DNA of 64,000 nucleotides from Acidobacteriota bacterium (lineage in GTDB: Bacteria; Acidobacteriota; Thermoanaerobaculia; UBA5066): assembly GCA_016716715.1 (NCBI GenBank), contig JADJVE010000007.1, positions 125,640 through 189,639 on the forward strand, given 5' to 3'. Positions 5,139 to 59,036 of the stretch are shown here, piece by piece. Under the pieces are notes generated by a model. The model saw nothing but the letters and a program-made list of their open reading frames with translations, was not told the origin of the DNA and ran no database searches. Numbering within the stretch: position 1 is the first letter of the stretch; each line of letters begins with the position of its first letter. The translations under genes were made by a program, and so were the position numbers.

Positions 5139-5540
5139 GACTCGGGCCGGACAGGCGGTCGCCGCTCTTGACGCCTCGGCGGAAGGAGGGGAGGAAAGTC
5201 CGGACTCCAGCGGGCAGCGTGCCGGAGAAATCCCGGTCGGGGCAACCCGAAGGAAAGTGGCACAGAAAACAAACCGCCGACGCGCCGCAAGGCGCAGGTA
5301 AGGGTGAAAAGGTGCGGTAAGAGCGCACCGCGGTTCCGGCAACGGAACTGGCAGGCGAAACCCCACGCGGAGCAAGGCCAAATAGGGTGACGGAAGGGGC
5401 GCCCGCCCTCGCGGCTCACGCCGACGTCACCGGGTCGGTCGCTCGAGCCCGTCCGGAAGGACGGGCCTAGAGGAATGACCGCCAGCCGGAAGGCGCGAGC
5501 CGACCGGTCACAGAATCCGGCTTATCGTCCGGCCCGAGTC
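5139..5540 (+). ncRNA. rnpB: RNase P RNA, bacterial type A
   Basis: GAGGAAAGTCCGGACTCC (P4 5' strand) lies near 5186-5205. Also present are GGTAAGGGTGAAAAGGTGCGGTAAGAGCGCACC and ACAGAATCCGGCTTATCG (P4 3' strand). P1 pairs GACTCGGGCCGGAC (5139-5152) with GTCCGGCCCGAGTC (5527-5540). Confidence 0.9.
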
Positions 5541-7277: not shown

Positions 7278-8230
7278 TGGCGGACCTCGCGAGGCTGCCG
7301 CGTCTCGTCCCCGGCGACACGGTTGGCGTCGCGGCGCTGTCGGGGCCACCGGATCCGGACGCCCTCGCGGCGGGTGTCCGGGCGCTCGAGGGGTTCGGCT
7401 ACCGCGTCCGGCTCGCACCGAACGTCCTCTCGAAGGAACCGCTCCTCGGCCTCGCGGGCGCCGCCGAAGAACGCGCGGCGGGTTATCGCTCGCTACTCGT
7501 CGACCCGGGCGTGAAGGCCATCGTCTTCGCGCGCGGCGGCTACGGCGTCGCGTCCGCGCTCCCGTGCCTCGACCCGGCGGAAGCGGCCGCGCACCCGAAG
7601 ATCCACTGCGGCTTTTCGGACGTTACCGTCCTCTCCTCCTGGCTCCTGAAGGCGGGCGTGCCGTCGTTCCACGGGCCCATGGTTGCCGCCGATCTCGCGC
7701 GCGGACTCGACCCGCTCTCCGCGTCCTTCTTTCCTTCGATGCTCGAGGGGAGGGGACCCAAGGAGATTTTCTTGGAAGGTGAAGAGGGGAGAGGCGGCGC
7801 GACCGGGAGCAGCGTGCTCGTACCCGGCGCCGCCACGGGGAGGCTCGTCGGAGGCTGTCTCTCCCTCCTCGCGGCGTCCGTCGGGACGCCTTGGGAATTC
7901 GACTACTCCAACGGCCTCCTCTTCTTCGAAGACATCGCCGAGGAGGCCTATCGCATCGACCGCATGCTCGGGACCCTGATCGATTCCGGCCGATTCGCTA
8001 AACTGTCCGGCATCTTGATCGGCACGCTGTCGGCTGTCACGTTTTCGGGCGTCGAAGATTCCGAGCGGCTTCGCTCGGTCCTCACGGCCCGTCTCGCGCC
8101 CCTCGGCATCCCCGTGGCCCTCGGCCTCCCCGCCGGCCACCGCGGCTCCAACGCGACCCTGCCCGTCGGCGCCCGCGCCGCGTGGGACGGAGCCGGGACG
8201 CTCACCTTCCTCGAGGAGATTACGTCTTGA
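7274..8230 (+). CDS. ldcA: LD-carboxypeptidase (S66 family, muramoyltetrapeptide carboxypeptidase-like)
   Basis: GDTVGVAALSGPPD N-terminus, catalytic GFSDVTVL, GGCLSLL and LLFFEDIAEEAYRIDRML motifs. ATGA overlap with the upstream gene. Confidence 0.8.
   Translation: MMADLARLPRLVPGDTVGVAALSGPPDPDALAAGVRALEGFGYRVRLAPNVLSKEPLLGLAGAAEERAAGYRSLLVDPGVKAIVFARGGYGVASALPCLDPAEAAAHPKIHCGFSDVTVLSSWLLKAGVPSFHGPMVAADLARGLDPLSASFFPSMLEGRGPKEIFLEGEEGRGGATGSSVLVPGAATGRLVGGCLSLLAASVGTPWEFDYSNGLLFFEDIAEEAYRIDRMLGTLIDSGRFAKLSGILIGTLSAVTFSGVEDSERLRSVLTARLAPLGIPVALGLPAGHRGSNATLPVGARAAWDGAGTLTFLEEITS
7761..7790 (+). repeat. AT-rich dispersed repeat, forward copy inside ldcA
   Basis: AGGAGATTTTCTTGGAAGGTGAAGAGGGGA encodes KEIFLEGEEG. 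A possible degenerate reverse partner CCTCCTCTTCTTCGAAGACATC lies at 7915-7936. Confidence 0.7.
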
Positions 8231-8249: not shown

Positions 8250-9009
8250 CACTCCGAGCGGCTTCGCGGACTACCTCATGAAGGCCGCGGCCGGGAAGGA
8301 CGTCTTCTCCGAGGGAGAGGTCGGCACCGAGATGTACGTCATCCAGGCCGGCACCGTCGAGATCTACAAGAAGAGCCGCAAGGGCGAGGAGAAGATTCTC
8401 GCGACGCTCGAAAAAGGCGACTTCTTCGGCGAGATGTCGATCCTCGAAGACGTCCCGCGAACGGCGTCCGCGCGCGCGAAGACCGAGTGCGAGCTCGTCC
8501 GGATCAACCAGACGACGTTCGACGAGATGCTGCGCCACAACGCGGAGATCGCCGTGCGGATGCTCCGCAAGCTCTCGCGCCGCCTGCGCGAGACGACGAA
8601 GCTCCTCGAGCAGTCGACGGGCGTCGCCCCGACGCTCGACCAGTCGTCGTCGGACATCTTCGCGAAGGAAGCCGACCGGCACGAGATCTTCCGGATCGTG
8701 GCGGACGCCGGCGGAGAATTCTTCCTGAACCGCGAGGGGGAGACCACCGTGGGGCGCATCGACCCCGTCACGGGGATCCGGCCGGACGTCGACCTCGCGA
8801 ACCTCGACACGCAGCGCTCCGTCTCCCGCCGCCATTCGAAGATCGTCCACTCCGGAAACGACTTCCGCGTCGTCGAGGAGATCGGAACCATGAACGGGAC
8901 GTTCGTGAACGGCACGCGCATCGTCACGGGCCAGCCGGTGTCGATCAAGGACGGCGACCGGATCCGCTTCGGACTCGTGGACCTCACGTTCCGCATCAGC
9001 AAGGCGTAG
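8227..9009 (+). CDS. Cyclic-nucleotide-binding domain plus FHA domain protein
   Basis: cNMP-binding core GEVGTEMYVIQAGTVEIY...GDFFGEMSILEDVPRTASARA. C-terminal FHA motif TTVGR...VSRRHSKIV...GTMNGTFVNG. The start is TTG 8227 (TTGA overlap with the ldcA stop) or GTG 8239. Confidence 0.8.
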   Translation: MKVVVKSGTPSGFADYLMKAAAGKDVFSEGEVGTEMYVIQAGTVEIYKKSRKGEEKILATLEKGDFFGEMSILEDVPRTASARAKTECELVRINQTTFDEMLRHNAEIAVRMLRKLSRRLRETTKLLEQSTGVAPTLDQSSSDIFAKEADRHEIFRIVADAGGEFFLNREGETTVGRIDPVTGIRPDVDLANLDTQRSVSRRHSKIVHSGNDFRVVEEIGTMNGTFVNGTRIVTGQPVSIKDGDRIRFGLVDLTFRISKA

Positions 9010-9014
9010 GGGTC

Positions 9015-11120
9015 ATTTCCGCTCCTCTTCCGCCCCTCGCGTCGCTGCCCGGAATCGGTCCCGCGCGCGCGAAGGAGCTGGCCGAGGCGGGCGTCGAGAC
9101 GGCGCTCGATCTCCTCCTCCACCTCCCGTTCCGGTACGAGGACCGCACGCGCATCGGACCGATCTCCGAGCTCGTCGCCGAAGGCCCGGCGACGACCGTC
9201 AAGGGAACGATCCTCTCCTCGCGCCTGATCCGGACGCGCCGGAGGGGCTTCACGATCTTCGAGGCGATCCTCGACGACGGCTCCGGCACGCTGCGCCTCG
9301 TCTTCTTCAACCAGCCGTACCTGCAGCGCTGGATGGCGCCGAAGAAGGTCTTCTGGGTTTACGGCATCGGCACACAGGCGGCGCGCTATCGACGCGGGCT
9401 CGTGATGGAGAACCCTCAAATCGAAGAGTTCTTAGAAGGTGAAGAGGGGAAGGACCCTCTTTCGGTGGGAAGGGTCGTCCCCATCTACCGAAAGTTGCCC
9501 GCGCTGACGCCGCGCTTGAGGCGGACCCTCGTCTTCCACCTTCTAAGAGATTTTGCAGACCATCTTCCCGAGCGCCTGCGCGACTCGCGAGAGAGGGAGC
9601 AGAGTCTCCCTCCCCTCGGCGAATCCCTGCGCGAGGCCCACTTTCCGGGCAGCGGCGGAGGGCCCGCGGACGCCGAGGCGTGGACGGAGCGGAAGTCGCC
9701 GCACCTGCACCGCCTCGTCTACGAGGAGTTCCTCGAGTTCCAGGTGGGCCTCCAGCGCCGCCGCGCCGAGCGCGACCGCGTGCCGGCGCCCGTCCTCGCG
9801 GCCGACGACGCGATCCGCGCGCGCCTCAAGGAAGCTCTGCCGTTCTCGCTGACGGCCGCGCAGAAACGCGTGATCCGCGAGATCGGCGAGGATTTCCGCG
9901 CGGGCCGGCCCATGCGGCGCCTGCTGCAGGGCGACGTCGGGAGCGGCAAGACGATCGTCGCCGTCCTCTCGGCCATTCTCGCGGCCGAGTGCGGCCGCCA
10001 GACCGCCCTCATGGCGCCGACCGAGATCCTCGCCGAGCAGCACTTCACGACCATCTTCCGGATCTTCGGCAAGACGCGCTTCCGCGCCGAGCTCCTGACG
10101 GGGCGCGTGAAAGGCAAGGCGCGGGCGCAGGTCCTCGACGCGCTGGCCGGCGGGCGCATCGACATGCTGGTGGGGACGCACGCGCTCCTCGAAGACCCCG
10201 TCGAGTTTCTGCGCCTCGGACTGATCGTGATCGACGAGCAGCACCGCTTCGGCGTGGCCCAGCGGACCGCCCTTGCGGCGAAGGCCGATCCCTCGGGCGC
10301 GCGCCCCCACCTCCTCGTCATGTCCGCCACGCCCATCCCGCGCTCGCTCGCCCTGACGCTCTACGGCGACCTCGACGTCTCGACGCTGGACGAGAAGCCG
10401 CCGGGCCGCACCGCGGTCACGACGCGCGTCCTGCCCGAGAGCGACCGCGCCACGGCGTTCCGCGAGATCGAGGGCGAGATCCGCGCCGGCGGCCAGGCGT
10501 ACGTCGTCGTCCCGCTCATCGAGGAGTCCGACACGATCGACGCCCGGGCGGTCGAGAAGCACGCCGGGGAGATCCGAAAGGCCCTGCCGGGCCGCCGCGT
10601 CGGCGTCCTCCACGGGCGCATCCCTCCTGACGAACGCGAGAGGACGATGGGGGAGTTCGCGGCGGGGAAGCTGGACGTCCTCGCGGCCACGACCGTCATC
10701 GAGGTGGGCGTCGACGTGCCGAACGCGTCGTACATGCTGGTCGAGAACGCGGAGCGCTTCGGCCTCGCGCAGCTCCACCAGTTGCGCGGCCGTGTCGGCC
10801 GCGGCCGGCGCACGTCGCGCTGCGTCCTCCTCTTCGGTCCGAAGACCTCGCCCGAGTCGCGGGAGCGCCTCGGCGTCCTCGAAAAGACGGACGACGGATT
10901 CGTCGTGGCCGAAGAAGATCTGAAACGCCGGGGCCCCGGCGACGCGCTCGGAACCCGCCAGAGCGGCGTCCCGATGTTCCGCATCGGGGACCTCGTCCGC
11001 GACGTCCGCTGGATGAGGGACGCGAAGGAAGAGGCGATGCGGCTCATCGCCGAAGGGCGCGACGCCGCTTTCCGCGAGCCGCTCTTCCTCCGGCCGGGGA
11101 CCGGCGCGGCGGGCGACTGA
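9015..11120 (+). CDS. recG: ATP-dependent DNA helicase RecG (start codon uncertain)
   Basis: LPGIGPARAKELAEAGVETALDLLLHLPFRYEDRT wedge/N-terminus, Walker A GDVGSGKT, DEQHRFGV, C-terminal RGPGDALGTRQSG. There is no ATG/GTG/TTG between the upstream stop (9009) and the conserved N-terminus. ATT 9015 or CTG 9045 are the only candidates. Confidence 0.85.
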   Translation: MSAPLPPLASLPGIGPARAKELAEAGVETALDLLLHLPFRYEDRTRIGPISELVAEGPATTVKGTILSSRLIRTRRRGFTIFEAILDDGSGTLRLVFFNQPYLQRWMAPKKVFWVYGIGTQAARYRRGLVMENPQIEEFLEGEEGKDPLSVGRVVPIYRKLPALTPRLRRTLVFHLLRDFADHLPERLRDSREREQSLPPLGESLREAHFPGSGGGPADAEAWTERKSPHLHRLVYEEFLEFQVGLQRRRAERDRVPAPVLAADDAIRARLKEALPFSLTAAQKRVIREIGEDFRAGRPMRRLLQGDVGSGKTIVAVLSAILAAECGRQTALMAPTEILAEQHFTTIFRIFGKTRFRAELLTGRVKGKARAQVLDALAGGRIDMLVGTHALLEDPVEFLRLGLIVIDEQHRFGVAQRTALAAKADPSGARPHLLVMSATPIPRSLALTLYGDLDVSTLDEKPPGRTAVTTRVLPESDRATAFREIEGEIRAGGQAYVVVPLIEESDTIDARAVEKHAGEIRKALPGRRVGVLHGRIPPDERERTMGEFAAGKLDVLAATTVIEVGVDVPNASYMLVENAERFGLAQLHQLRGRVGRGRRTSRCVLLFGPKTSPESRERLGVLEKTDDGFVVAEEDLKRRGPGDALGTRQSGVPMFRIGDLVRDVRWMRDAKEEAMRLIAEGRDAAFREPLFLRPGTGAAGD
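9421..9568. repeat. Convergent repeat doublet inside recG
   Basis: The forward copy is TCGAAGAGTTCTTAGAAGGTGAAGAGGGGA (9421-9450). The reverse copy is TTCCACCTTCTAAGAGATTTTGCAGACCATCTTCC (9534-9568). The 83-nt interior is GC-rich and encodes the conserved RecG segment VVPIYRKLPALTPRLRRTL. Confidence 0.8.
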
Positions 11121-11827: not shown

Positions 11828-12822
11828 TGTCCGAGCCTTCTCAGAAGATCGTTCTTTCGGGGCTGCGCCCGACGGGCCGCGTCCACCTCGGCAACTACTG
11901 GGGCGCGGTGAAGAACTGGGTGGACCTGCAGTCGACCTACGCCTGCCGGTACTTCGTGGCCGACCTCCATGCGCTCACGACGGACTACGCCGACACCTCC
12001 GCGATCCGCGAGGCTTCGGTCGAGGCCGTGACGGACTGGCTCTCCGTGGGCCTCGACCCCGAGAAGAGCGTCATCTTCGTCCAGTCGCGCGTGCCGCAGA
12101 CCGCCGAGCTTGCGCTCGTCTTCGGGATGATCACGCCGCTCGGCTGGCTCGAGCGCGTGCCGACGTACAAGGAGCAGATCGAGCAGCTGCGCGAGCGGGA
12201 CCTCGGGACGTTCGGTTTCCTCGGCTACCCGGTTCTCATGACCGCCGACATCGCGCTTTACCTCGCGCACTACGTCCCGGTCGGCAAGGACCAGGAGAGC
12301 CACCTCGAGATCTGCCGCGAGATCGTGCGGCGCTTCAACGGCTTCTACGGGGACGTCTTCCCCGAGCCGAAGGCGCTGTTCACGGCGACGCCGAAGGTGC
12401 CCGGGCTCGACGGCCGGAAGATGTCCAAGAGCTACAACAACACGCTCGCGCTGTCGGACTCGGCCGAGGACGTGGCGAAGAAGGTCATGGGAATGGTCAC
12501 GGACCCGAACCGGGCGCGCCGCTCGGACCCCGGCGACCCGGACGTTTGCAACCTGTACCCGTTCCACGTGCTGTATTCGCCTACGGAAGAGCAGAAGGTC
12601 GTCGCCGAGGAGTGCCGTGCGGCCACGCGCGGCTGCGTGGACTGCAAGAAGCACCTCATCCGCAACATGAACGCGGCGCTCGAGCCCATTCGCCAGAAGC
12701 GCGCGGAGATCGTGGCGAAAAAGGACTACGTGAAGGACGTCCTCGAGGACGGAAATACCAGAGCCCGAGCGATTGCCTCAGAGACGATGGAGAAGGTCTC
12801 GAACGCAATGGGGCTGCTGTAG
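11827..12822 (+). CDS. trpS: Tryptophan--tRNA ligase
   Basis: SGLRPTGRVHLGNYWGA (HIGH-type), KMSKS, class I TrpRS layout. ATGA overlap with the upstream stop. Confidence 0.9.
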   Translation: MSEPSQKIVLSGLRPTGRVHLGNYWGAVKNWVDLQSTYACRYFVADLHALTTDYADTSAIREASVEAVTDWLSVGLDPEKSVIFVQSRVPQTAELALVFGMITPLGWLERVPTYKEQIEQLRERDLGTFGFLGYPVLMTADIALYLAHYVPVGKDQESHLEICREIVRRFNGFYGDVFPEPKALFTATPKVPGLDGRKMSKSYNNTLALSDSAEDVAKKVMGMVTDPNRARRSDPGDPDVCNLYPFHVLYSPTEEQKVVAEECRAATRGCVDCKKHLIRNMNAALEPIRQKRAEIVAKKDYVKDVLEDGNTRARAIASETMEKVSNAMGLL

Positions 12823-12863
12823 TGGCCGAGTTCCGGATCCCCGTCCCCGCGGGCGCGGACCTC

Positions 12864-15983: not shown

Positions 15984-17687
15984 ATGTCGCCCACGGACCT
16001 GAGGAAGACTGGCCCCAAGGCTGAGGAAGGCGATCCCGGGGAATTCGCGCGCCTCCTCGCCGAGAGCGAACGCTCTCTGAAGGAGGGCGAGCTCATCAAG
16101 GGCCGCGTGCTTCAGGTGACGGCCGACGAGATTCTTGTGGACATCGGCTACAAGAGCGAAGGGATGATCCCGCGCTCCGAGTTCCACCACGTTCCCGCCG
16201 ACAAGCTGCCGCACCCGGGCCAGGAGATCGAAGCGATCCTCGAGCGCACGGAGGGCCCGAACGGCTACGTCGTGCTCTCGTACGAAAAGGCGCGCCGCGG
16301 GCGCGCGTGGGACATCGTGGAGGCGGCCTTCGCCGCGAACGAGCCCGTCAAGGGCCGCGTGATCGACCGCGTGAAGGGCGGACTCTCCGTCGACATCGGC
16401 GTGCGGGCGTTCCTGCCCGGCTCCATCGCGGACTCGCGCCCGCTCAAGAACCTCGACGTCCTCAAGGGACGCGAACTCGAGTTCCGCGTCGTGTCGCTCG
16501 ACAAGAAGCGCGGCAACATCGTTCTCTCGCGCAAGGCGCTCCTCGACGAGTTCGCCGAGGTCAAGAAGAAGGAAGCCGCTTCCGCGCTCGCGGACGGGCG
16601 CGTCCTCAAGGGCGTCGTCAAGAACCTCACCGACTACGGCGCGTTCGTCGACCTCGGGGGCATCGACGGCCTCCTGCACGTCACGGACATGACGTGGGGC
16701 CGCCTCGCCCACCCGTCCGACGCCGTTCACGTCGGACAGGAGGTGGACGTCAAGGTCCTCCGCTTCGACGAGGCAAGCGGCCGCATCTCGCTCGGGATGA
16801 AGCAGCTCAAGCCCGACCCGTGGCAGGACCTCCCGTCCCACTACCCGGTCGGCGCCCGCGTCCGCGGCAAGGTCGTGTCCCTGACCGACTACGGCGCTTT
16901 CGTCGAGCTCGAGGAAGGCGTCGAAGGCCTCATCCACGTGTCCGAGATGTCGTGGACGAAGCGGGTCAAGAACCCGTCGAAGCTCCTGAACGTCGGCGAC
17001 ACGATCGAAGCCGTCATCGCGGATGTGAACCCCGAGACGCGCCGCCTCTCGCTCTCGCTCCGCGCGACGGAGCCGAACCCGTGGGAGCAGCTCGCCGAGA
17101 AGTTCCACATCGGCGACCGCATCACGGGCACCGTGCGCAACCTGACCGACTTCGGCGCCTTCGTCGAGATCGAGGACGGCATCGACGGGCTCATCCACGT
17201 GTCCGACATGTCCTGGGGCCGCCGCGTGAAGCACCCCTCCGAGATCCTGAAAAAGGGCGACGAGGTCCAGGCCGTCCTCACCGCCATCGACGTCGAGAAC
17301 CGCCGGATCAGCCTCTCGATCAAGGAATTCCGCCCGAACGAGTGGGAAGAGTTCGCGTCGAAGCACCAGCCCGGCGACGTCGTCGACGGCAACGTGGCGA
17401 AGGTGGCCGACTTCGGCGTCTTCGTGCGCCTGCCCGAAGGGCTCGAGGGCCTCATGCATGTCTCCGAGACGCCGCTTCCGCGCGGCGAGAAGCCCGGCAA
17501 CGTCTACCACGAAGGCGATCCCGTCCGCGTGCGCATCCTGCGCATCGAGCCGGCGGAGCAGCGCATCGGGCTTTCCTCGCGCGACGTCGACCAGCCGGAA
17601 GCCGGTGCCGAGCCCGAAGCCGCGCCTTCCGAGGGCGAAGCGTCCGCCGACGACCACGTTCACGCGGACACGGAACCGTCCGAGTAG
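15984..17687 (+). CDS. rpsA: 30S ribosomal protein S1
   Basis: Six S1 repeats (e.g. GVVKNLTDYGAFVDLGGIDGLLHVTDM). AAGGAG lies 9 nt upstream of ATG 15984. Confidence 0.9.
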   Translation: MSPTDLRKTGPKAEEGDPGEFARLLAESERSLKEGELIKGRVLQVTADEILVDIGYKSEGMIPRSEFHHVPADKLPHPGQEIEAILERTEGPNGYVVLSYEKARRGRAWDIVEAAFAANEPVKGRVIDRVKGGLSVDIGVRAFLPGSIADSRPLKNLDVLKGRELEFRVVSLDKKRGNIVLSRKALLDEFAEVKKKEAASALADGRVLKGVVKNLTDYGAFVDLGGIDGLLHVTDMTWGRLAHPSDAVHVGQEVDVKVLRFDEASGRISLGMKQLKPDPWQDLPSHYPVGARVRGKVVSLTDYGAFVELEEGVEGLIHVSEMSWTKRVKNPSKLLNVGDTIEAVIADVNPETRRLSLSLRATEPNPWEQLAEKFHIGDRITGTVRNLTDFGAFVEIEDGIDGLIHVSDMSWGRRVKHPSEILKKGDEVQAVLTAIDVENRRISLSIKEFRPNEWEEFASKHQPGDVVDGNVAKVADFGVFVRLPEGLEGLMHVSETPLPRGEKPGNVYHEGDPVRVRILRIEPAEQRIGLSSRDVDQPEAGAEPEAAPSEGEASADDHVHADTEPSE

Positions 17688-22946: not shown

Positions 22947-23824
22947 AATCCATGACCGGGTTCGGCAAGGCGGCCGGCACGCTGCCCGACGGCACCGAGG
23001 TGAGCGTCGTCGTGAAGGGCGTGAACCACCGCTTCCTCGATCTCGGCCTCAAGCTCCGCGACGAGTACGCCTCGGCCGAGCCCGCGATCCGCAGAGCGGT
23101 GGCGAAGGTCGTACAGAGGGGTCACGTCGACGTGCTGATCCGGACCACGAAACCCGCGAGCGCGGCCGCAACGGCCCGCATCGACATGGACGCCGCGGAG
23201 AAATATGCGAGGGAGTGGAGAGAAGATTCTTTGAAAAGGGGATTGCCGGCGGATCTCTCGGCGAGGGACCTCCTCGCGCTGCCGGGGGTCGTGCGGTCGG
23301 ACGACGCCGGAGCCGCGCCTGATTCCACTTTCGAAGAATCTCTTCTTCCGATCGTCGATGAAGCCCTCCAGGACTTCGATGCCGCCCGGGCGCGCGAAGG
23401 GGCCGCTCTCTCTCTTACCTTCAAAGAAATTCTTCAAAGGATCGACGCCGGGGTGGCCCGTCTCGACGCGGAACGAGTCGGCATTTCCGACCGCATTCAA
23501 AGCAATCTCCGAGAGCGCATCGAGAAGCTGGCCGCCGGCATCCCGCTCGACGAGGGGCGGCTCGCTCAGGAAGTCGCCCAGCTGGCGGACCGCGCGGACA
23601 TCACGGAGGAGATCGACCGGTTGAAGACGCACCTCACGGAGGCGAGGCGTCTCCTCGCGGCGGACGGCGCGATCGGCCGCCGCCTCGACCATCTCGCGCA
23701 GGAGCTGCATCGCGAGGTCAACACGTCCGGCTCCAAGGTGCGGGAGGCGGGCGCGACGAAGCTCGTCCTCGACCTGAAGTCCGAGCTCGAAGCCTTCAAG
23801 GAACAGGTCCAGAACGTCGAATGA
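22943..23824 (+). CDS. yicC: YicC/YloC family stress-induced protein (endoribonuclease)
   Basis: MKSMTGFG N-terminus, VNHRFLDL, C-terminal EEIDRLKTHL...REVNTSGSK. Confidence 0.8.
   Translation: MKSMTGFGKAAGTLPDGTEVSVVVKGVNHRFLDLGLKLRDEYASAEPAIRRAVAKVVQRGHVDVLIRTTKPASAAATARIDMDAAEKYAREWREDSLKRGLPADLSARDLLALPGVVRSDDAGAAPDSTFEESLLPIVDEALQDFDAARAREGAALSLTFKEILQRIDAGVARLDAERVGISDRIQSNLRERIEKLAAGIPLDEGRLAQEVAQLADRADITEEIDRLKTHLTEARRLLAADGAIGRRLDHLAQELHREVNTSGSKVREAGATKLVLDLKSELEAFKEQVQNVE
23218..23440. repeat. Three repeat copies inside yicC (one forward, two reverse)
   Basis: The forward copy is GAGAGAAGATTCTTTGAAAAGGGGATTGCC (23218-23247). The reverse copies are GATTCCACTTTCGAAGAATCTCTTCTTCCG (23321-23350) and CTCTCTCTCTTACCTTCAAAGAAATTCTTCAAAGG (23406-23440). 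Confidence 0.75.
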
Positions 23825-24794: not shown

Positions 24795-24999
24795 GGAAAG
24801 AGAAGAAAGAGAAGAGAAGATTTCTTTGAAGGTGAATAGGGCAGGGGGCGGCGCCGCAGCAGGAAATGCACCGCTTGCGCAGACCGCTGCGACGCCTTCT
24901 TTCACCTTCGAAGAAAATGCGCCCTATCCCGCCGCTTCGAAGTCCACGCGAAGCGCTTCTGCGTCGGACCTGCCGTCCTTAGCAAAAGAAGTTTCTTCC
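24795..24999. repeat. Repeat cluster at the 5' end of udg (forward, reverse, reverse-variant)
   Basis: The forward copy is GGAAAGAGAAGAAAGAGAAGAGAAGATTTCTTTGAAGGTGAATAGGGCAGGGGG (24795-24848). The reverse copy is CCTTCTTTCACCTTCGAAGAAAATGC (24895-24920). The variant is GTCCTTAGCAAAAGAAGTTTCTTCC (24975-24999). Confidence 0.8.
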
Positions 25000-29749: not shown

Positions 29750-32380
29750 ATGGGCCTCTCCGCGGGCACCCAACTGGGCCCGTACGAGGTTCTTGGCCCG
29801 CTCGGGGCGGGCGGAATGGGCGAGGTCTATCGCGCCCGCGACACGCGCCTTGGGCGCCAGGTCGCCGTAAAGATCCTCCCGGACGCGGTCTCGCAGGATT
29901 CCCGCCGGGTCGCCCTGTTCGAGACCGAGGCCCGGACTCTCGCGGCGCTGTCCCACCCGAACGTCCTCGCGATCCACGACGTGGGCCGCGTCGAAGGGCG
30001 TCTCTACGCCGTCACGGAGTTGCTCGACGGGGAGAACCTGCGCAGCCGGATGGGCGACGGGACTGTGTCGTGGCGCAAGGCAGCCGAGGTTGCCGCCGCG
30101 ATCGCCGACGGCCTCGCGTCCGCGCACGCGGCGGGCATCGTCCATCGGGACCTCAAGCCCGAAAACGTTTTTCTCACGACCGACGGGCGCCTGAAGATCC
30201 TCGACTTCGGCCTCGCAACCTACGCCGAGCCCGTGCTGGACGACGCCGTCACCCTCACGTCGCCCTCCGGCGGCACCCTGTCGGGCGCGGTCGTCGGAAC
30301 GCTCTCCTACATGGCCCCCGAGCAGCTCCGCGGCCGCCGGGTGGACGGTCGGACGGACATCTTCGCGCTGGGCTGCGTGCTCTACGAGATGCTCGCGGGG
30401 AAGCGCCCGTTCAGCGGGGCCACGCCCGCGGACACGCTCGCGGCAATCCTCCACCACGATCCCGAGCCCTTCGCTCCGGGCGCGCCCGGCATTCCTCCGG
30501 GGCTTCAGACGATCGTCCTTCGGTGCCTCGAGAAGAGGCCGGAGGACCGGTTCGACACGGCACACGACCTCGCAATAGCGCTCCGGGGCATCTCCGCCGA
30601 GCAACCGGTCGTGAGATCGGGGGAGAGCCCGGCCCCCGCCCGTCCGGCGCGCGGGAGTCGGCTCGTGACGCTTGGAATCGCGTCCACGATCGTCGTTGGC
30701 GGCTTAATCCTGATCGCAAGACTCACGCGGACGTCGTCGGCCGCCTTCCCAAACGCCGGGAGTTGGAGTCCCCCCAAGCAGATCACGAGCGCGCCCGGGT
30801 GGGAGGGCGAACCCGCAATCTCGCCGGATGGGACGCTCGTCGCATATAGCTCCAACGCTTCGGGAAAGGCGGACATCTGGGTGGTCGATCCCGAGGGAGG
30901 AGAACCCCTGCGCCTTACCGACAGCGCTGCCGAGGACCGGAGTCCCGCTTGGTTCCCGGACGGGCGAACGATCGCCTTCGTTTCGAGACAAGGCGGTGCG
31001 CCTTCCGTCCGGACGGTGTCCCGCCTCGGCGGGAGCACGTGCCTGATCGTCGACGAAGCTGAGGAGCCCGCGATTTCGCCGGACGGCGCGCAAGTTGCGT
31101 TTGCACGGATCACGGAGGGAGGGCTCCATCGCATCTGGGTCGCGCCGATCGCCGATCCGGCCCGGGTGAGGCGACTGACCGGCGACGACGACGGCCCTTG
31201 GGAGCACATGGGCCCCGCCTGGTCACCAGACGGGACACGCCTTTATTACGCGGCCTTCCATGACCTCTGGACAGTGCCCGTCGCGGGTGGCAAGGCCGAG
31301 AGGCTGACGCGCGACGGCGTACCGGACTGCGAGCCAGTGGCCTCTCGGGACGGCGGCTTTGTGTACTTCAGCTCCCGCCGCGGCGGACCTCCGTCGATCT
31401 GGCGGGTCTCCGCCACGGGCGGCGCGCCCGAAAGGGTCACGTCCGGAACGGGCGGTGCCAGCCACCCTTCTCTGTCGCGCGATGGCCGCCGTCTCGTCTT
31501 CGGGAGTTCCGTGCGCGACATGGACGTCGTCCTAATCGACCGCCGCTCCGGAGCCGTGAGCCGCATCGGAACCACCAAAGACGACGAGAGTCCGGCGCTC
31601 GCCCCGGACGGAAACACCGTGGCCTTCGTGTCGAATCGGCTCGGCCCGTGGGACCTCTGGATCGCGGACGTGCAGGGAGGCCGAATTGGGAAAGGGCCCG
31701 CCCGACGGCTGACGGCCTTCGATCGAGGCATGGCGACGCCTGCGTTTTCCCCGGACGGCAAATGGATTGCGTTCTTCAGGCCGATGCCGGGACATCGCGA
31801 GATCTGGGCGCTGCCCCTGAACGGCGGCGCGACGATCCCGCTCATCCGGAGCGACGCGGACAACCTCCATCCGGCATATGCGCCCGACATGTCGCGGCTC
31901 GCGTTCGTTTCGGACCGCGCCGGCCAGTTGAACATCTGGGCAGTCGCGCTCAGCGGGGGTCGGCCGACCGGCGAGCCTTGGCGGGTCACGCGAGGGGGAG
32001 GCACGGACGCCTTCCCCGTCTGGTCGCCCGACGGCAGCAGGATCGCATTCCTCCGCGGAATGGACATCTGGGTCGTCGCAACGCACCCCGGAACCGAGGA
32101 AATCGCCCTGACGCGTGGAGCGGGAGTTCAAGCAGTCGCCTTCGAACCCGACGGCACCGCTGTGATCGCGCCCGGCCTGTTCGGCACTCCGGCCCTCCAC
32201 CTTCGACGGGTGTCTCTTGCGACGGGTGTGTCTGAGGCCGTCTCCCCGCCGCTGTCGCTGGGCGATCGGAATGCACTCGGATCCGTGAGCCTGAGCCGTG
32301 ATGGCCGCTTCGTCGCCACGGACGCCACTGAGTTGAAAGGAAACATCTGGATGACGACGGCGACCCGCGACGGCCGGTAA
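29750..32380 (+). CDS. Ser/Thr protein kinase fused via a TM segment to a TolB/PD40-type beta-propeller
   Basis: [45 protein letters not shown]. The TM segment is LVTLGIASTIVVGGLILIA. It is followed by repeated PD40-like units (ISPDG..VAF.S.R.G...IW). Confidence 0.85.
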   Translation: MGLSAGTQLGPYEVLGPLGAGGMGEVYRARDTRLGRQVAVKILPDAVSQDSRRVALFETEARTLAALSHPNVLAIHDVGRVEGRLYAVTELLDGENLRSRMGDGTVSWRKAAEVAAAIADGLASAHAAGIVHRDLKPENVFLTTDGRLKILDFGLATYAEPVLDDAVTLTSPSGGTLSGAVVGTLSYMAPEQLRGRRVDGRTDIFALGCVLYEMLAGKRPFSGATPADTLAAILHHDPEPFAPGAPGIPPGLQTIVLRCLEKRPEDRFDTAHDLAIALRGISAEQPVVRSGESPAPARPARGSRLVTLGIASTIVVGGLILIARLTRTSSAAFPNAGSWSPPKQITSAPGWEGEPAISPDGTLVAYSSNASGKADIWVVDPEGGEPLRLTDSAAEDRSPAWFPDGRTIAFVSRQGGAPSVRTVSRLGGSTCLIVDEAEEPAISPDGAQVAFARITEGGLHRIWVAPIADPARVRRLTGDDDGPWEHMGPAWSPDGTRLYYAAFHDLWTVPVAGGKAERLTRDGVPDCEPVASRDGGFVYFSSRRGGPPSIWRVSATGGAPERVTSGTGGASHPSLSRDGRRLVFGSSVRDMDVVLIDRRSGAVSRIGTTKDDESPALAPDGNTVAFVSNRLGPWDLWIADVQGGRIGKGPARRLTAFDRGMATPAFSPDGKWIAFFRPMPGHREIWALPLNGGATIPLIRSDADNLHPAYAPDMSRLAFVSDRAGQLNIWAVALSGGRPTGEPWRVTRGGGTDAFPVWSPDGSRIAFLRGMDIWVVATHPGTEEIALTRGAGVQAVAFEPDGTAVIAPGLFGTPALHLRRVSLATGVSEAVSPPLSLGDRNALGSVSLSRDGRFVATDATELKGNIWMTTATRDGR

Positions 32381-47757: not shown

Positions 47758-49119
47758 GTGAGCGTGAATCCCGATCTCAAGGGCGGCCGCCGTGTCTTCG
47801 TCGAGACGTGGGGCTGCCAGATGAACGTCCTGGACGGGCGGCGCTTCGCGGGCCTCCTCGCGCGCGACGGGTACGACGAGACGTTCGACGAGTCGGACGC
47901 CGACGTCTTCATCCTCAACACCTGCTCCGTGCGCGACAAGGCGGAGCAGAAAGTCTACGACCGAGTCGGACGCCTTGCGAAGCTCAAGCGGGCCAAGCCG
48001 GGGCTCGTGCTCGGCGTGTGCGGCTGCGTGGCCCAGCAGGAGGGCGAGTCGCTCCTCGAGCGCCTGCCCGCCGTCGACTTCGTCCTCGGGACCGGCCGCA
48101 TCGAGACGCTGCCGTCCGTGCTGCGGCGCGTCCGCGAGGAGGGCGATCGGCCGTGCGACACGGGTTTCGACACGGGCGAGGTCGTGTACACGCCCGGCGC
48201 CATCGCGCGCCTCGTGAGACACCGTGCGTCGATCACGGTGATCGAGGGCTGCAACAAGAACTGCACGTTCTGCGTCGTCCCGCAGACGCGCGGGCGCGAG
48301 CGCAACCGGCGCCTCGCCGACGTCGTGGAGGAGAGCCGCCGGCTGCTCGCAGACGGCGTCGTCGAGCTCGAGCTGCTCGGGCAGACCGTCAACGCGTTCC
48401 GCGATCCCGTCACCGGCGAGGACTTCGCGGACCTCGTCCGCGCGGTGGGCGCGCTGCCGGGGCTCCGCCGCCTGCGCTTCGTGACCTCGCACCCGAAGAA
48501 CTTCGACACGAAGCTCATCGACGCGATGGCCGACACCGCCACCGTCGCTCCGTACCTTCACCTGCCGGTCCAGTCGGGGTCGGACGCCGTCCTCAGGCGC
48601 ATGAAGCGCCAGTACACACGCGCCGAGTACGTGGATCTCGCGGGACGCCTCCGCGACCGTCTCCCGGGCCTCGCGCTCTCCACGGACGTCATCGTCGGAT
48701 TTCCGGGGGAGACCGAGGTGGATTTCGAGGACTCGCTGTCGCTGCTCACCGAGCTGCGGTTCGCGCTCATCTATTCGTTCACGTACTCGCCCCGGCCCGA
48801 CACGGCCGCCGCCCGGTGGGAGCACGACGTCCCGCCCCGCGAGGCGTCGCGCCGACTGGCGGCGCTGATGGACCTGCAGCAGGAGATTCAGCGAGAGACT
48901 CACCGGCGCCTGGAGGGCCGGGTGATGGAGGTCCTCGTCGAAGGACTGGACCGGAAGGGCGTCCGGAGCTCGGGCCGGTCGCTGTGCAGCCGGGTCGTGA
49001 ACATCGCGCAGCCGGAAGGGGAGCCTCCGATCCCGCCGGGATCGTTCGTGAACGTGCTGATCGAGCGCGGCTACCCGAATTCGCTGCTCGGAAGAGAGAT
49101 TTTTGCTTTCGGAAAATAG
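47758..49119 (+). CDS. miaB: tRNA-2-methylthio-N6-dimethylallyladenosine synthase
   Basis: VFVETWGCQMNV, ILNTCSVRDKAEQK, radical SAM CNKNCTFCVVP, C-terminal TRAM domain. Confidence 0.9.
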   Translation: MSVNPDLKGGRRVFVETWGCQMNVLDGRRFAGLLARDGYDETFDESDADVFILNTCSVRDKAEQKVYDRVGRLAKLKRAKPGLVLGVCGCVAQQEGESLLERLPAVDFVLGTGRIETLPSVLRRVREEGDRPCDTGFDTGEVVYTPGAIARLVRHRASITVIEGCNKNCTFCVVPQTRGRERNRRLADVVEESRRLLADGVVELELLGQTVNAFRDPVTGEDFADLVRAVGALPGLRRLRFVTSHPKNFDTKLIDAMADTATVAPYLHLPVQSGSDAVLRRMKRQYTRAEYVDLAGRLRDRLPGLALSTDVIVGFPGETEVDFEDSLSLLTELRFALIYSFTYSPRPDTAAARWEHDVPPREASRRLAALMDLQQEIQRETHRRLEGRVMEVLVEGLDRKGVRSSGRSLCSRVVNIAQPEGEPPIPPGSFVNVLIERGYPNSLLGREIFAFGK

Positions 49120-49233
49120 ATTTCGTCGAATGGTTAATAAAGAGGGGTGGCACGACCCCGCTGCGGGTCGGCATGTCGCGTGTTGCGGCCCGCTCCTAAA
49201 CCTCTCTAAGCAAATCTCTTAGGTGCTCTTCGG
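49089..49233. repeat. Repeat doublet spanning the miaB 3' end and the miaB-BFN intergenic region
   Basis: The tandem forward copies are GGAAGAGAGATTTTTGCTTTCGGAAAATAG and ATTTCGTCGAATGGTTAATAAAGAGGGG (49089-49147). The reverse copy is AACCTCTCTAAGCAAATCTCTTAGGTGCTCTTCGG (49199-49233). Confidence 0.75.
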
Positions 49234-49834: not shown

Positions 49835-49859
49835 ATCATGCGCATCTCTCTCGCATGAT
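49835..49859 (+). promoter_or_regulatory. 8-bp perfect inverted repeat spanning the parA start codon, with a 6-codon upstream mini-ORF
   Basis: ATCATGCG (49835-49842) pairs with CGCATGAT (49852-49859). ATG 49838 opens MRISLA-stop, and its TGA overlaps the parA ATG at 49855. Confidence 0.3.
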
Positions 49860-50616
49860 CATCACAGTCGCGAACCAGAAAGGCGGAGTGGGGAAGACCA
49901 CGACGGCGATCAACATCGCCGCCGCCTTCGCGCAGAAGGGTCTTCGCACCCTTCTCATCGACCTCGATCCCCAGGGGAACTCCACGATGTCCTTCATCGA
50001 CCGGAAGGAGATCGGGAAGTCGATGTACGACGTCCTCACGGACCCGGCGACGTCGATCTTCGAGATCATCCGGCCGGCCGCTCTGCCGAAGCTCACCATC
50101 GCCCCGGCTCGCATCGCTCTCGCGAAGGTCGAGTCGAAGCTCCTCGGCGAGCTCGACGGCCACTTCCGCCTCAAGGACAAGCTCCAGGTCGTGAAGGAGT
50201 CGGGGGAGTACGACGCGATCATCATCGACACGCCGCCGACGCTGGGAATGATCACGGTGAACGCGCTCGTGGCGTCGTCCCACATCCTCATTCCGATCCA
50301 GTCGTCCTACTTCGCTCTCGAAGGCACGGACGACCTTCTCGAGACGATCGAGAAGATCAAGGGCCGCCCGAATCCGAACCTCCAGATTCTCGGCGTGGTC
50401 ATCACGCTGCACGACCGGCGCACAACGCTCGGGCGCGACATTCAGGCCCAGATCGACGAAGTCTTCAAGGGCAAGGTTTTCAAGACGACGATCTCGAAGT
50501 CCATTCGTCTCGAGGAATCCCCGGCGTACAAGGAATCCATCTTCACGTTCGCTCCGCGCTCGTCAGGCGCGCTCGAGTACTACAGCCTGACGGAGGAGAT
50601 CCTCTCCCGTGTCTAA
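49855..50616 (+). CDS. parA: Chromosome partitioning ATPase ParA/Soj
   Basis: IITVANQKGGVGKTTTAINIAAAFA, IIIDTPPTLG. Confidence 0.9.
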   Translation: MIITVANQKGGVGKTTTAINIAAAFAQKGLRTLLIDLDPQGNSTMSFIDRKEIGKSMYDVLTDPATSIFEIIRPAALPKLTIAPARIALAKVESKLLGELDGHFRLKDKLQVVKESGEYDAIIIDTPPTLGMITVNALVASSHILIPIQSSYFALEGTDDLLETIEKIKGRPNPNLQILGVVITLHDRRTTLGRDIQAQIDEVFKGKVFKTTISKSIRLEESPAYKESIFTFAPRSSGALEYYSLTEEILSRV

Positions 50617-51508
50617 GCGTCGCGGCCTCCCCGAAACATCCCGCATGCGCCACGATTCGCACTTCGTCGAGCAGCTCGTGCGGGCGGACGAACTGCCCGT
50701 CGGGCGGCGCATCCCGATCCACCTCATCGAGGCGAACCCGGACCAGCCCCGTAGCTCGATGGGCGACCTTGCCGAGCTCACGAAGTCGATCACCGACAAG
50801 GGCGTTCTCGAGCCGATCCTCGTGCGCCCTCGTGAAGACGGCCGCTACACGATCATCTCCGGCGAACGGCGCTTCCGGGCGTCGCTCGACGCCGGCCTCA
50901 CGGAGATTCCGTGCATCGAGATGGAGATCTCCGACAGCGAAGTCCTCGAGATCGCCCTCGTTGAGAATCTCCAGCGCAAGGATCTCAGCCCGTTCGAGGA
51001 AGCCGACGGATACCGCGCGCTGCAGGAGCGGCACGCGTACACGCACGTTCAGATCGCGGATGCCGTGGGGAAGTCGCGCGTCACGATCACGGAGGCCCTC
51101 GCGATCGGCAGGCTGCCTGAGGCCGTCAGGGAGGAATGTCGGCGCGCCGACATCCAGTCCCGTTCCTTCCTCCTCGAGCTCGGCCGCCTCAAGGACGAGG
51201 ACCTCATGCTTGCCATGGTCGCCGCGATGGCGAGGGGCGAAGACGTGAGCCGCGACGTCCTGCGCGAGGCGAAGGGCGCTGCACGCCGGGGCGCCACGCC
51301 TGCCAAACCGGGAGCGATGAAGCGCGCGTACACGCTCGATTACGCTCCCGAGGATCGTCGCTACAAGGTGAGCCTCGTCCTCAAGGGAAAGCTCCACAGG
51401 AAGGACGAGATCCTCGAAGCGATCCGCGACCTGGCGCGCCGCATTGAAGCGGGCGACATCGACCTCGAGTCCCAGGGCCGCTTCGTCAAAGCGAAGCCGA
51501 AGAAGTAG
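50609..51508 (+). CDS. parB: Chromosome partitioning protein ParB/Spo0J
   Basis: GVLEPILVRP...YTIISGERRFRAS, ALVENLQRKDLSPFEEA, HTH segment QIADAVGKSRVTITEAL. Confidence 0.9.
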   Translation: MSKRRGLPETSRMRHDSHFVEQLVRADELPVGRRIPIHLIEANPDQPRSSMGDLAELTKSITDKGVLEPILVRPREDGRYTIISGERRFRASLDAGLTEIPCIEMEISDSEVLEIALVENLQRKDLSPFEEADGYRALQERHAYTHVQIADAVGKSRVTITEALAIGRLPEAVREECRRADIQSRSFLLELGRLKDEDLMLAMVAAMARGEDVSRDVLREAKGAARRGATPAKPGAMKRAYTLDYAPEDRRYKVSLVLKGKLHRKDEILEAIRDLARRIEAGDIDLESQGRFVKAKPKK

Positions 51509-51513
51509 CGCCC

Positions 51514-51817
51514 GAAGAGAACCAGAGAGAACGAAGAGAAGATCTTCCTAGAAGGTGAAGAAGGGGCCAGGCGCCGCGTAACCGCCGCACGCGCAGACGA
51601 CAGAGGCGCCCCCCACACGTTCTAGGAATATCTCCGACGCCCGCTCCCGGTTCGAGAAGCCTAATAAATTCAGGCCTGGCGTCCCTCGTATTTAACATAA
51701 TAAATATTATCGGACGTTGCCTATTGGCGCCGGAATCCGGTCATGCAGCAGCTCGTGGCGCGGCGAATAGCCCGCTGAAGCCCTCTTAACCTTCTAAGAA
51801 AATCTTTGTCCTCTTCC
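51514..51817. repeat. Repeat doublet flanking an extremely AT-rich core between parB and lptFG
   Basis: The forward copy is GAAGAGAACCAGAGAGAACGAAGAGAAGATCTTCCTAGAAGGTGAAGAAGGGG (51514-51566). The reverse copy is CCCTCTTAACCTTCTAAGAAAATCTTTGTCCTCTTCC (51781-51817). The interior holds CCTAATAAATTC and TATTTAACATAATAAATATTATC. Confidence 0.8.

Positions 51818-54130: not shown

Positions 54131-54134
<4 letters not shown>
51834..54134 (+). CDS. Fused LptF-LptG LPS export permease (single 766-aa ORF)
   Basis: The N-terminal half starts LRRLDRYVFSEVL (LptF/YjgP pattern). The second half starts MRLPGLLLIDRYVARRFL at 53040 (LptG/YjgQ pattern). No stop codon separates them. Confidence 0.8.
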
Positions 54135-56489
<2,355 letters not shown>

Positions 56490-58274: not shown

Positions 58275-59036
58275 CTAGTGCCGCCTTGCGGGGGGAACCG
58301 GCGTCGGGGCCGGCCCCACCTTCTCGGGATTCTCGAAAAGCCGCGCAATGTCCCCCCGGTAGAGGAAGAGGCGCATCTTGTGGCTGCCGTCGCCCCCCGT
58401 AACGGCCATCTCCTCGAGCTCGAAGTCGTGGTCGAGCACGTCGTCGTGGACGATGCGGTACCAGACGCCGTCGGACCGCTTCTTCAGGAGAGACCCGGCC
58501 TTGAGGCCCTTCGTGTCCCAGTTGATCTCGGACGGGTCCTCCTTCTCGAAGCGCGCTCGCAGGTCCTCGATGGCGCCCCGCGCATGCCCGACGGCGAGCG
58601 GGAGGGTCGAGAGCTCGTCGAATGGGTATGCCCGGATCTTCCCCGGCCCGTCCGCGATCTCCAGCCGCATGCGTCGGGCGGCCGAGTCGCCCAGCACCAT
58701 GCGGGCCGGATCCTCGACGTCGCGCCGCTCCACGACGAGCGCGTCCTGGCAGACCCGCTTGATGACCTCGAGCTCCTGCTGCGAGACGGTTCGACGCTCC
58801 ATCGTGTCGACTCCGCGGAAGCTCAGGATCTTCACGAGCGTGCCGTCGTCGAAGAGCGCCGTGCGCTCGCGGCCGACGCCCTGCCACGACTCGAGCGCGA
58901 TGACGAGGCGGGGATTCCGGATCTCCGGAGTCCGCGTGGGCGTGACCGTGGCGGTCGGCGTCGGCGTGAGCGTCGGGAACGGCGCTTCGCCCGGCGCAAA
59001 CGCGAGCGCGGCCGCGAGGACGAAGAAAACGCTCAC
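58275..59036 (-). CDS. Secreted hypothetical protein
   Basis: Signal peptide [14 protein letters not shown] followed by a PT-rich linker. It abuts the rsmD start and overlaps the cca-like stop. Confidence 0.55.

Follow-up and report, generated by a model that had tools for sequence, protein, structure and literature searches.

Paired inverted boxes inside recG belong to a repeat family dispersed in a subgroup of Thermoanaerobaculia

Where Rickettsia palindromic elements (RPEs) lie in protein-coding genes, the protein gains one uninterrupted stretch of about 30-50 residues. They are counted among the in-frame MITEs (transposable elements of the miniature inverted-repeat type), which have been reviewed (PMC10969869). 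REPINs are doublets of REP sequences (repetitive, extragenic and palindromic) that form hairpins and are mobilised by RAYT transposases (REP-associated tyrosine transposases; Bertels & Rainey 2011, PMC3116915). In SBW25, 14 of 1,067 REPs overlap genes, and the arms of REPINs show frequent compensatory changes (PMC3116915). The uptake sequences of Pasteurellaceae and Neisseriaceae (uptake signal sequences, USS, and DNA uptake sequences, DUS) accumulate in coding regions and number 765-1,892 per genome (Findlay & Redfield 2009, PMC2817400). Intragenic invertons, which exist in both orientations, consist of inverted repeats in coding sequences that flank a short segment (bioRxiv 10.1101/2023.03.11.532203). 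Here we describe an inverted pair of boxes, each about 25 nt long, inside the recG gene of an Acidobacteriota bacterium (Thermoanaerobaculia; contig JADJVE010000007.1), in a stretch of 64,000 nucleotides (positions 125,640 to 189,639 of the contig, hereafter the window). REPs and REPINs are regarded as extragenic, and the rickettsial in-gene repeats as block insertions. The paired boxes described here, by contrast, overlay homologous residues of conserved housekeeping proteins and bracket untouched host sequence, and they are then conserved as DNA.

The recG locus contains the following features.
9015-11120, + strand: recG coding sequence (open reading frame, ORF; start approximate, the gene calls of relatives begin further downstream)
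9422-9448, + strand: left box (CGAAGAGTTCTTAGAAGGTGAAGAGGG), 40.0 bits with the weight matrix described below; reads EEFLEGEEG
9449-9529, + strand: interior (KDPLSVGRVVPIYRKLPALTPRLRRTL), 81 nt of ordinary conserved RecG coding sequence, not derived from the repeat
9530-9556, - strand: right box, inverted (minus strand GCAAAATCTCTTAGAAGGTGGAAGACG), 35.1 bits; the + strand reads VFHLLRDFA

The predicted RecG protein matches the Pfam domains RecG_wedge (residues 13-159), DEAD (281-444), Helicase_C (488-596) and RecG_dom3_C (625-684), and proteins 90-93% identical to it were recovered in the homologue search. Both boxes are within the RecG reading frame, and the left one (copy GAAGAGTTCTTAGAAGGTGAAGAGGG, + strand) lies in the C-terminal end of the RecG_wedge match. 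An initial annotation, made from the letters alone, had reported an inverted doublet inside recG and had taken the DNA between its copies for conserved RecG coding sequence; the position and description of the doublet were confirmed, as was the nature of the interior. The interior encodes DPLSVGRVVPIYRKLPALTPRLRRTLV, which matches E. coli RecG residue for residue (tltpvypttegvkqatlrkl, PDB 9wm0). It also aligns without gaps to T. maritima RecG (1gm5) and to all 120 homologues that we compared, and DPLSVGRVVPIYRKLPxLTPRxRR is found in every one of these (n=120). The start region of recG (9007-9020), just after the stop of an upstream FHA/cNMP-binding gene, has no canonical start codon. In relatives, RecG starts are called at varied downstream positions (599-720 aa), and some of these calls forfeit the wedge-domain match.

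The initial annotation needs correcting in that the doublet is not specific to recG. It is one copy of a genome-wide repeat family and so says little about recG. In the window, which has a GC content of about 70%, the 16-nt core of the box has eight matches with up to three mismatches, compared with 0.14 expected from shuffles. A 27-nt weight matrix built from nine copies, with which mononucleotide shuffles never scored above 11 bits, locates about 20 sites in the window, or one box per 5 kb. The consensus runs from a purine-rich outer flank of about 20 nt through A.GATTTCTTAGAAGGTGAAGAGGG into a GC-rich interior, with a G-rich inner end; the box is asymmetric, and its conserved part covers about 23 nt. 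When one genome per species was scanned for exact copies of the 18-mer TTCTTAGAAGGTGAAGAG, at least 120 loci matched. Among the matches listed, 109 were in high-GC metagenome-assembled genomes (MAGs) labelled Thermoanaerobaculia or Acidobacteriota, and the other 11 were lone chance matches in AT-rich genomes. A set of 116 high-GC loci from Thermoanaerobaculia/Acidobacteriota MAGs (964 kb) contains 307 boxes of at least 18 bits, and loci picked via RecG rather than via the motif carry about one box per 4 kb. No box was found in L006 or L130, two syntenic loci of 22 kb each from more distant relatives with the same GC content (RecG identity 69-72%). A metagenome scan with AhcY for close relatives of the 44-64 kb part of the window gave only relatives of at most 75% identity, which served as a negative control. 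In these 770 kb of unrelated metagenome loci, seven matches reached 18 bits and none reached 23 bits. The box family is restricted to a subgroup of Thermoanaerobaculia (Acidobacteriota), and the next relatives lack boxes. The Acidobacteriota concerned, for which metagenomes are the only source, occur commonly in soil and sediment, and we found no description of the box repeat in Thermoanaerobaculia in the literature.

Boxes are arranged in pairs of fixed polarity. In the 116 high-GC loci, neighbouring boxes less than 300 nt apart were convergent in 80 cases and divergent in three. Among 152 strong boxes, the share with a convergent partner (at least 10 bits, within 350 nt) was 76%; it was 1% when a divergent partner was sought as a control. 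The unit of the element is X … reverse complement of X, where X is A.GATTTCTTAGAAGGTGAAGAGGG, and the G-rich ends always face inward. Elements span about 50-350 nt, and some pairs have interiors of 11-12 nt or overlapping boxes. Within pairs the spacing varies between 11 and 301 nt, and its mode is 43-50 nt. A helical periodicity of 10-11 nt is absent, and DNA looping with helical phasing was ruled out on this ground. Orthologues apart, interiors bear no relation to one another (85 interiors gave 24 similar pairs, most of them orthologues), and the modal class of 43-46-nt interiors shows weak mutual similarity.

About half of the boxes (130 of 254) lie wholly inside called genes; per base, boxes are about 7-fold enriched in intergenic DNA, which makes up 10% of the DNA. 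A box is present in 19% of the spacers between convergent genes, in 10% of those between tandem genes and in 13% of those between divergent genes, with no preference for gene 3′ ends. The trpS-scpA junction is found both empty and filled. Stop and start overlap in six genomes, among them the window (12819-12825) and three close relatives, and 39, 51 and 320 nt of box sequence occupy the junction in L005 (6828-6866), L004 (13544-13594) and L003 (13709-14026), respectively. Compared across these genomes, the box sequence at this junction is a genuine insertion. It has no clear flanking direct repeat; the TA of the palindromic TTCT-TA-GAA would be compatible with one and is indistinguishable from the repeat itself. 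In the filled junctions a pyrimidine-rich tail abuts the scpA ATG, without a Shine-Dalgarno sequence. A whole element is inserted in frame in the Fmt gene of L079 (6006-6114). In MnmA of L062, boxes lie over homologous residues with length changes of 0 and +2 residues, according to an alignment to a solved structure. Judged from such alignments, boxes overlay poorly conserved residues in at least five housekeeping genes and leave the conserved host sequence between them intact.

The alignment of the 120 RecG homologues bears on how the recG boxes arose. All 58 RecGs of one monophyletic clade have both boxes, the first site reading FLEG(E/K)E… and the second (F/H)HLLR(D/N)FAD; the pair had a single origin in the ancestor of the clade, followed by vertical inheritance. 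Relatives without the motif still have both stretches, so that the case named in the initial annotation as refuting substitution did not arise. The initial annotation had further proposed that the motif was imposed on existing codons with no change in protein length. In substance this is right, but at the left box the length is not strictly unchanged. At the right site the length is identical in all 120 homologues, and box-less relatives have ordinary sequence there, such as LVAKLLDALGDRL; the right box arose by substitution only. At the left site, box-less RecGs have an acidic linker of 9-13 residues, compared with 13 in the window RecG, and the left box adds 2-4 residues relative to box-less relatives. 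Overall, the window RecG is 3 residues longer than the closest box-less RecG (L006) and 1-3 residues longer than E. coli RecG. The box-less RecG of L130 carries CTCGAGGAGGAAGGGGAG at the site of the window's TTCTTAGAAGGTGAAGAG, suggesting that the ancestral acidic linker was already partly box-like. In many RecGs of the clade the left box is followed directly by 5-40 extra G/A/S-rich residues, or the box is present twice in tandem (30 nt); because of these, the left box probably came with a small insertion that was later trimmed in the lineage of the window.

The tandem duplication of the left box (…EEFLEGQGKEKEFLEGEEG…) is seen in the RecGs P0011, P0012, P0014, P0054 and P0055, and at 10090-10146 in L004 and about 10250-10305 in L007. 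The G/A/S-rich linker after the left box is hypervariable, with 0-40 residues, and within the clade this site is a hot spot of indels. A few RecGs that fall outside the main clade (P0065, P0082/83/87) carry weaker boxes in the same places. In P0065, P0082 and P0083 (from L129 and L128), the N-terminal third of about 200 residues, boxes included, is nearer to the box clade, and the helicase remainder is nearer to box-less neighbours. This mosaic pattern suggests a recombinant gene rather than an independent origin. The box positions of L128 read GCCCTCGAAGG and CCTTCTGGGGGGCGTCGCA, which looks like decay toward GC-rich codons.

We then consider conservation at the nucleotide level. We aligned the recG codons of seven genomes (the window, L001-L005 and L007), and in 468 degenerate columns of this alignment the residue is invariant. 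GC content at third codon positions (GC3) in recG of these genomes averages 0.92 outside the boxes and 0.32 inside. An AT-ending codon is kept in at least six of the seven genomes in nine columns, eight of which are within the boxes (GAA, GAA, GGT, CTT, CTA, AGA, TTT and GCA). The left box occupies the same place in L001-L005 and L007, where its GAA and GGT codons are kept. The box nucleotides in recG are retained against strong GC3 pressure, as DNA and not merely as protein. The initial annotation had argued for selection at the DNA or RNA level, and its argument is strengthened by the AT-ending codons (TTA, CTA, AGA, GGT, GAA, TTT and GCA) kept in six to seven of the seven genomes against a GC3 of 0.92. 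Its description of the codons as atypical was also correct. Codons were counted in 59 predicted window genes with a codon model trained on annotated relatives, as gene finding by GC3 only proved unreliable. TTA, CTA and AGA occur 4, 5 and 31 times, respectively, among 20,173 codons. Of 19,583 ten-codon windows, none scores lower than the right box of recG, and the left box falls in the lowest 0.7%. Boxes make up 10 of the 15 worst codon-usage patches of the window. The family accounts for most of the oddest codon-usage patches in the genes of these Acidobacteriota, and gene callers misplace starts around boxes. In eight orthologous intergenic elements, identity is 81% for the arms, 71% for the interiors and 76% for the flanks. 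The right box of recG is a locus-specific variant (…TAAGAGATTTTGCAGACC; …CTAAGAGATTTTGCAGACC) that is kept in all seven genomes. This suggests that it has been inherited vertically under constraint and not homogenised continuously by other copies, which makes ongoing gene conversion from other copies, raised as an alternative in the initial annotation, unlikely.

The boxes can pair with each other. An RNA fold of the doublet had also been proposed for examination, and the boxes pair in the predicted minimum-energy folds on both strands (z of -2.2 and -3.2 for recG). The z-score is -2.9 for 59190-59355 and -4.6 for the RNA of the minimal element at 54120-54200. The identity between partners equals that between shuffled partners (z about 0), alike for the box, the 25-nt outer flank and the 12-nt inner flank. 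Partners share 92 deviations from the consensus, compared with 98±9 expected for shuffled partners. Among the recG relatives, single-arm changes in L002, L005 and L007 have no match in the other arm, and the outer purine/pyrimidine flanks are not complementary beyond composition. We infer that each box is held to the family consensus independently and that the conserved thing is the box sequence, not a stem, because the partners do not co-vary and each stays near the consensus. Rfam gave no family match at the boxes, RNase P RNA being the only hit in the window, and a known RNA family was ruled out. The window has no tRNA or tmRNA genes. A consensus scan made no terminator-like or promoter call at the elements; with no bias toward convergent or tandem spacers, terminators and promoters were likewise set aside.

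Compared with the described systems, the family resembles REPINs in its hundreds of short conserved box copies, its inverted doublets and its preferred spacing. As in REPINs, conservation is lower in the spacer than in the boxes, boxes that stand alone look like decayed doublets and copies persist for long at orthologous sites. Unlike REPs, which are nearly all extragenic and have a palindromic core of their own, about half of the boxes are in genes, and the box contains only TTCT-T-AGAA (4 bp with a 1-nt centre), which is no hairpin-capable palindrome. No compensatory changes of the kind known from REPINs were seen between boxes. REPIN systems have a single-copy RAYT gene (a Y1 transposase) flanked by the repeats, whereas about 1 Mb of box-bearing loci yielded no RAYT gene and nothing else resembling a transposase. 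Like RPEs, the boxes are a palindromic dispersed repeat in essential genes that leaves the frame intact and sits at surface or poorly conserved positions, and at least one copy, in Fmt of L079, is a whole-element in-frame insertion. Unlike the block insertions of RPEs, the recG boxes stand 81 nt apart around conserved host sequence and change the length by 0-4 residues. Boxes placed as terminal inverted repeats, the small size (about 65-350 nt) and the filled and empty trpS-scpA junction recall MITEs. MITE copies have homologous interiors and stem from an autonomous insertion sequence with the same ends, whereas the interiors here are unrelated except between orthologues, and no insertion sequence was found in the loci examined. 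Uptake sequences share with the boxes a lineage-specific motif in coding regions that arises by substitution, without indels, at poorly conserved and frame-compatible residues and is conserved at orthologous sites. They differ in having cores of 9-12 nt that act singly at about one per kb, whereas the boxes are about 23 nt long, obligately paired in convergent orientation, of fixed polarity, widely spaced and less dense, and their intergenic copies are insertions. Finally, intragenic invertons likewise have inverted repeats in coding sequences around a short segment, with a shared consensus at many loci. They exist in both orientations, whereas no inverted copy was seen among 58 RecG representatives or eight orthologous elements, and some pairs are too close together. 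We have therefore filed the box family as a kind of dispersed inverted-repeat element outside REPINs, RPEs and other in-frame MITEs, uptake sequences and invertons.

The explanation that we favour, with moderate confidence, is that the recG doublet is an ancient, vertically inherited copy of a lineage-specific dispersed repeat whose boxes are recognised by a putative factor. A sequence-specific factor would recognise each box and would need two of them, inverted, in the manner of REPINs or MITEs. A transposase or recombinase is the likeliest candidate for it, along with a domesticated protein of the REP-binding type. The fixed polarity, with the G-rich end inward, is what is expected of the end of a transposase or recombinase substrate, and neither a hairpin nor an uptake signal would need it. 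In recG the boxes would fall on two surface segments, and their peptides (the acidic EEFLEGEEG and the helix FHLLRDFAD) would fit the prior residues; the boxes may have been tolerated because of this position and compatibility. We do not think that the pair is a specific regulator of recG. If a factor reads the pairs, it would have hundreds of sites, essential genes included.

Several observations weigh against this explanation. No transposase or recombinase was found between long-range convergent pairs, where the ORFs are ordinary host genes, and 665 clustered proteins from about 0.9 Mb of box-bearing loci contain no recurrent transposase-like family. An autonomous element was ruled out for these loci on the same two grounds. 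Ends of a transposase substrate would leave unexplained why pairs bracket host sequence without duplication or displacement (3 of about 8 window pairs) and why resident copies are conserved. FLEG and HLLR are conserved peptides, so that part of the conservation in recG could be at the protein level, although protein constraint does not account for the conserved synonymous AT-ending codons. The comparison of arms with interiors rests on eight orthologue comparisons only. Independent drift of the arms of an old MITE would likewise give no covariation within pairs.

The origin of the bracketing pairs in recG, yicC, cca and mnmA was considered separately. A single insertion was rejected as their source, their interiors being untouched conserved host sequence. 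Two insertions with later trimming were also rejected, since every one of the four combinations of arms would then be expected. Derivation of the second box by a template switch or by hairpin homogenisation was discarded, as there is no similarity within pairs beyond the consensus. In-place evolution toward the box, at sites with box-like peptides, fits the data for these four genes. There is also a small chance that the lineage has a process that installs inverted pairs of 25-nt boxes around existing DNA and leaves the interior untouched. Such a process could have acted hundreds of times per genome, in essential genes, by templated or guided writing or by conversion, tied to a putative factor and unlike cut-or-copy transposition, and selection at the host level could then maintain the boxes.

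Four other explanations were considered. A hairpin in RNA or single-stranded DNA could be the functional unit, with paired boxes affecting mRNA stability, processing (e.g. by RNase III) or termination, or forming a cruciform. The predicted pairing on both strands (z from -2.2 to -4.6) is in its favour, as are the convergent layout, which gives the same RNA with a 5′ purine arm and a 3′ pyrimidine arm from either strand, and the position of the minimal element between convergent genes. We nevertheless regard a hairpin function as unlikely, since compensatory covariation is absent (92 against 98±9; z about 0), the single-arm changes in recG are unmatched, the outer flanks are not complementary beyond composition, and there are no Rfam matches, no terminator calls and no preference for gene 3′ ends (19%, 10% and 13% of convergent, tandem and divergent spacers); a hairpin alone also gives no account of the fixed polarity (80 against 3). 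A directional process, either an uptake-like molecular drive (biased DNA uptake with recombination) or a biased short-patch gene conversion from other copies, might instead move box-like loci toward the box. Boxes that overlay existing codons, with indels few or absent, where residues are poorly conserved and peptides already box-like (e.g. CTCGAGGAGGAAGGGGAG in L130) would follow from it, as would a pattern like that of uptake sequences in coding regions (PMC2817400), the presence of about half of the boxes in called genes, a lineage-specific family conserved at orthologous sites, and the mosaic RecGs of a second clade with a box-clade-like N-terminal third, which fit recombinational spread. 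Uptake sequences, however, act singly and in either orientation, whereas at least 76% of the boxes are in convergent pairs of fixed polarity up to 300 nt apart. The density of one box per 4-5 kb is several-fold below that of the 765-1,892 uptake sequences per genome (PMC2817400), the conserved box is about 23 nt long, intergenic copies have come in as insertions tens to hundreds of nt long, and the locus-specific right box of recG in seven genomes argues against ongoing homogenisation. Such a process is accordingly a doubtful candidate.

The boxes might also be inert remains of an old MITE that entered in frame, like RPEs, kept by protein constraint and limited divergence. Single insertion cannot yield the interiors of recG, yicC, cca and mnmA, which are host sequence, with boxes that replace homologous residues. 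Inert remains would also not explain the synonymous AT-ending codons kept in six to seven of seven genomes against a GC3 of 0.92, or arms that are more conserved than interiors. The boxes of L128, which look decayed to GC-rich codons, indicate the effect of relaxed constraint, and no autonomous partner was found in the box-bearing loci and no clear target-site duplication at trpS-scpA. These points make an inert MITE improbable to us, although it would account for terminal inverted repeats in elements of 50-350 nt, the weakly similar 43-46-nt interior class, the presence/absence polymorphism at trpS-scpA, the whole element in frame in Fmt (L079) and the hypervariable extra residues after the left box in many RecGs, and in-frame MITE insertions have precedent (PMC10969869). 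Least probable by far is an intragenic inverton, in which a site-specific recombinase would invert the DNA that the boxes enclose, so switching RecG to a recoded isoform (phase variation). The inverted repeats around a short segment, a consensus shared by many loci as for one master invertase, and the documented invertons (bioRxiv 10.1101/2023.03.11.532203) would agree with phase variation, and in-silico inversion of 9430-9548 leaves the reading frame open. An open antisense frame is, however, expected by chance at 70% GC, and the inverted product would destroy the conserved RecG segment. The inverted isoform occurs in 0 of 58 box-bearing RecG cluster representatives, all eight orthologous element comparisons are collinear with their flanks, and interiors of 11-12 nt or overlapping boxes are too short to invert.

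Other boxes and box-like matches in the window are as follows.
7762-7788, + strand: box in the LD-carboxypeptidase gene (Peptidase_S66, ldcA), 43.2 bits; reads EIFLEGEEG, in the same frame as in recG
23222-23248 (+), 23319-23345 (-) and 23409-23435 (-): three yicC boxes, 11.2, 13.3 and 33.9 bits
24815-24841 (+) and 24896-24922 (-): pair in the 5′ region or N-terminal extension of a family-4 uracil-DNA glycosylase (UDG) gene, 44.5 and 34.0 bits
28812-28853 (28812/28827, divergent): weak overlapping box-like matches in a methyltransferase gene (Methyltransf_11), 12.2 and 12.1 bits; membership of the box family doubtful
49116-49219 (49116 + / 49193 -): degenerate convergent pair in the spacer after a MiaB-like radical-SAM gene, 10.8 and 12.1 bits
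51538-51564 (+), 51609-51635 (-) and 51781-51807 (-): intergenic element from parB to lptF/G, 39.3, 19.5 and 45.8 bits
54137-54183 (54137 + / 54157 -): minimal element of two overlapping convergent boxes, a compact hairpin, 21.9 and 15.7 bits
57909-57935, + strand: weak box-like match over the DPPF catalytic motif of RsmD (Cons_hypoth95), 10.1 bits; probably a chance or proto-box match
59213-59330 (59213 + / 59304 -): pair in a gene of the CCA-adding/poly(A) polymerase family (59036-59980, minus strand), 42.3 and 42.4 bits

The ldcA box at 7762 has no strong partner. Orthologous boxes are present in L001, L002, L004 and L007, and the box lies on homologous residues with a length change of +4 aa relative to 6uuk. 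About 165 nt downstream of this box, at 7920-7945, the conserved LFFEDI motif of LD-carboxypeptidase, encoded by CTCTTCTTCGAAGACATC, resembles an inverted box; the orthologous FFED site in L007 scores 15 bits. The three yicC boxes lie over homologous residues with length changes of +3, +3 and 0 aa relative to E. coli YicC (8ver/8hvj), and the TTCAAAGAA variant found in yicC avoids an in-frame TAA. In the UDG gene, the UDG domain and the alignment to Thermus UDG begin at ORF residue 89, and the pair lies in an 88-residue N-terminal extension or in the 5′ region. The boxes of the CCA gene read EEIFLEGNW and SHSPSKKSS. EEIFLEGNW aligns without gaps to EKILEEKN, and the host interior is gapless to T. 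maritima 3h37. The minimal element at 54137-54183 is located between the convergent lptF/G and ahcY genes.

The parB-lptF/G element combines a weak inverted box at 51609, at the canonical 44-nt spacing, with a strong inverted box at 51781. The segment between these inverted boxes (51640-51720) is strikingly AT-rich (…cctaataaattcaggcc…tatttaacataataaatattatcgg…), and GC content over 48-52 kb falls to 0.64-0.66. The AT-rich segment could be a promoter region or foreign DNA inserted in the element. Upstream, 49855-51508 encodes a parA-like gene followed by parB (ParB_N and HTH_ParB), and the repeat element begins 30 nt past the parB stop. No parS-like site (TGTTTCACGTGAAACA, up to three mismatches) was found anywhere in the 64-kb window, and the boxes were ruled out as parS despite the presence of parAB.

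The window also encodes a bacterial class A RNase P RNA (5143-5540, + strand; 269 bits, full length), flanked by the gene of a large kumamolisin-like protease and the ORF that follows it. At 16600-17490, direct repeats recur about every 258-261 nt; these encode the S1 domains of ribosomal protein S1, an ordinary feature. Two stretches, 29750-30186 and 63562-63998, are 73-81% identical. The former opens a Ser/Thr protein kinase gene with PD40 beta-propeller repeats (29750-32380) and the latter an ORF that runs off the end of the window, and by this similarity the two ORFs are probably paralogues.

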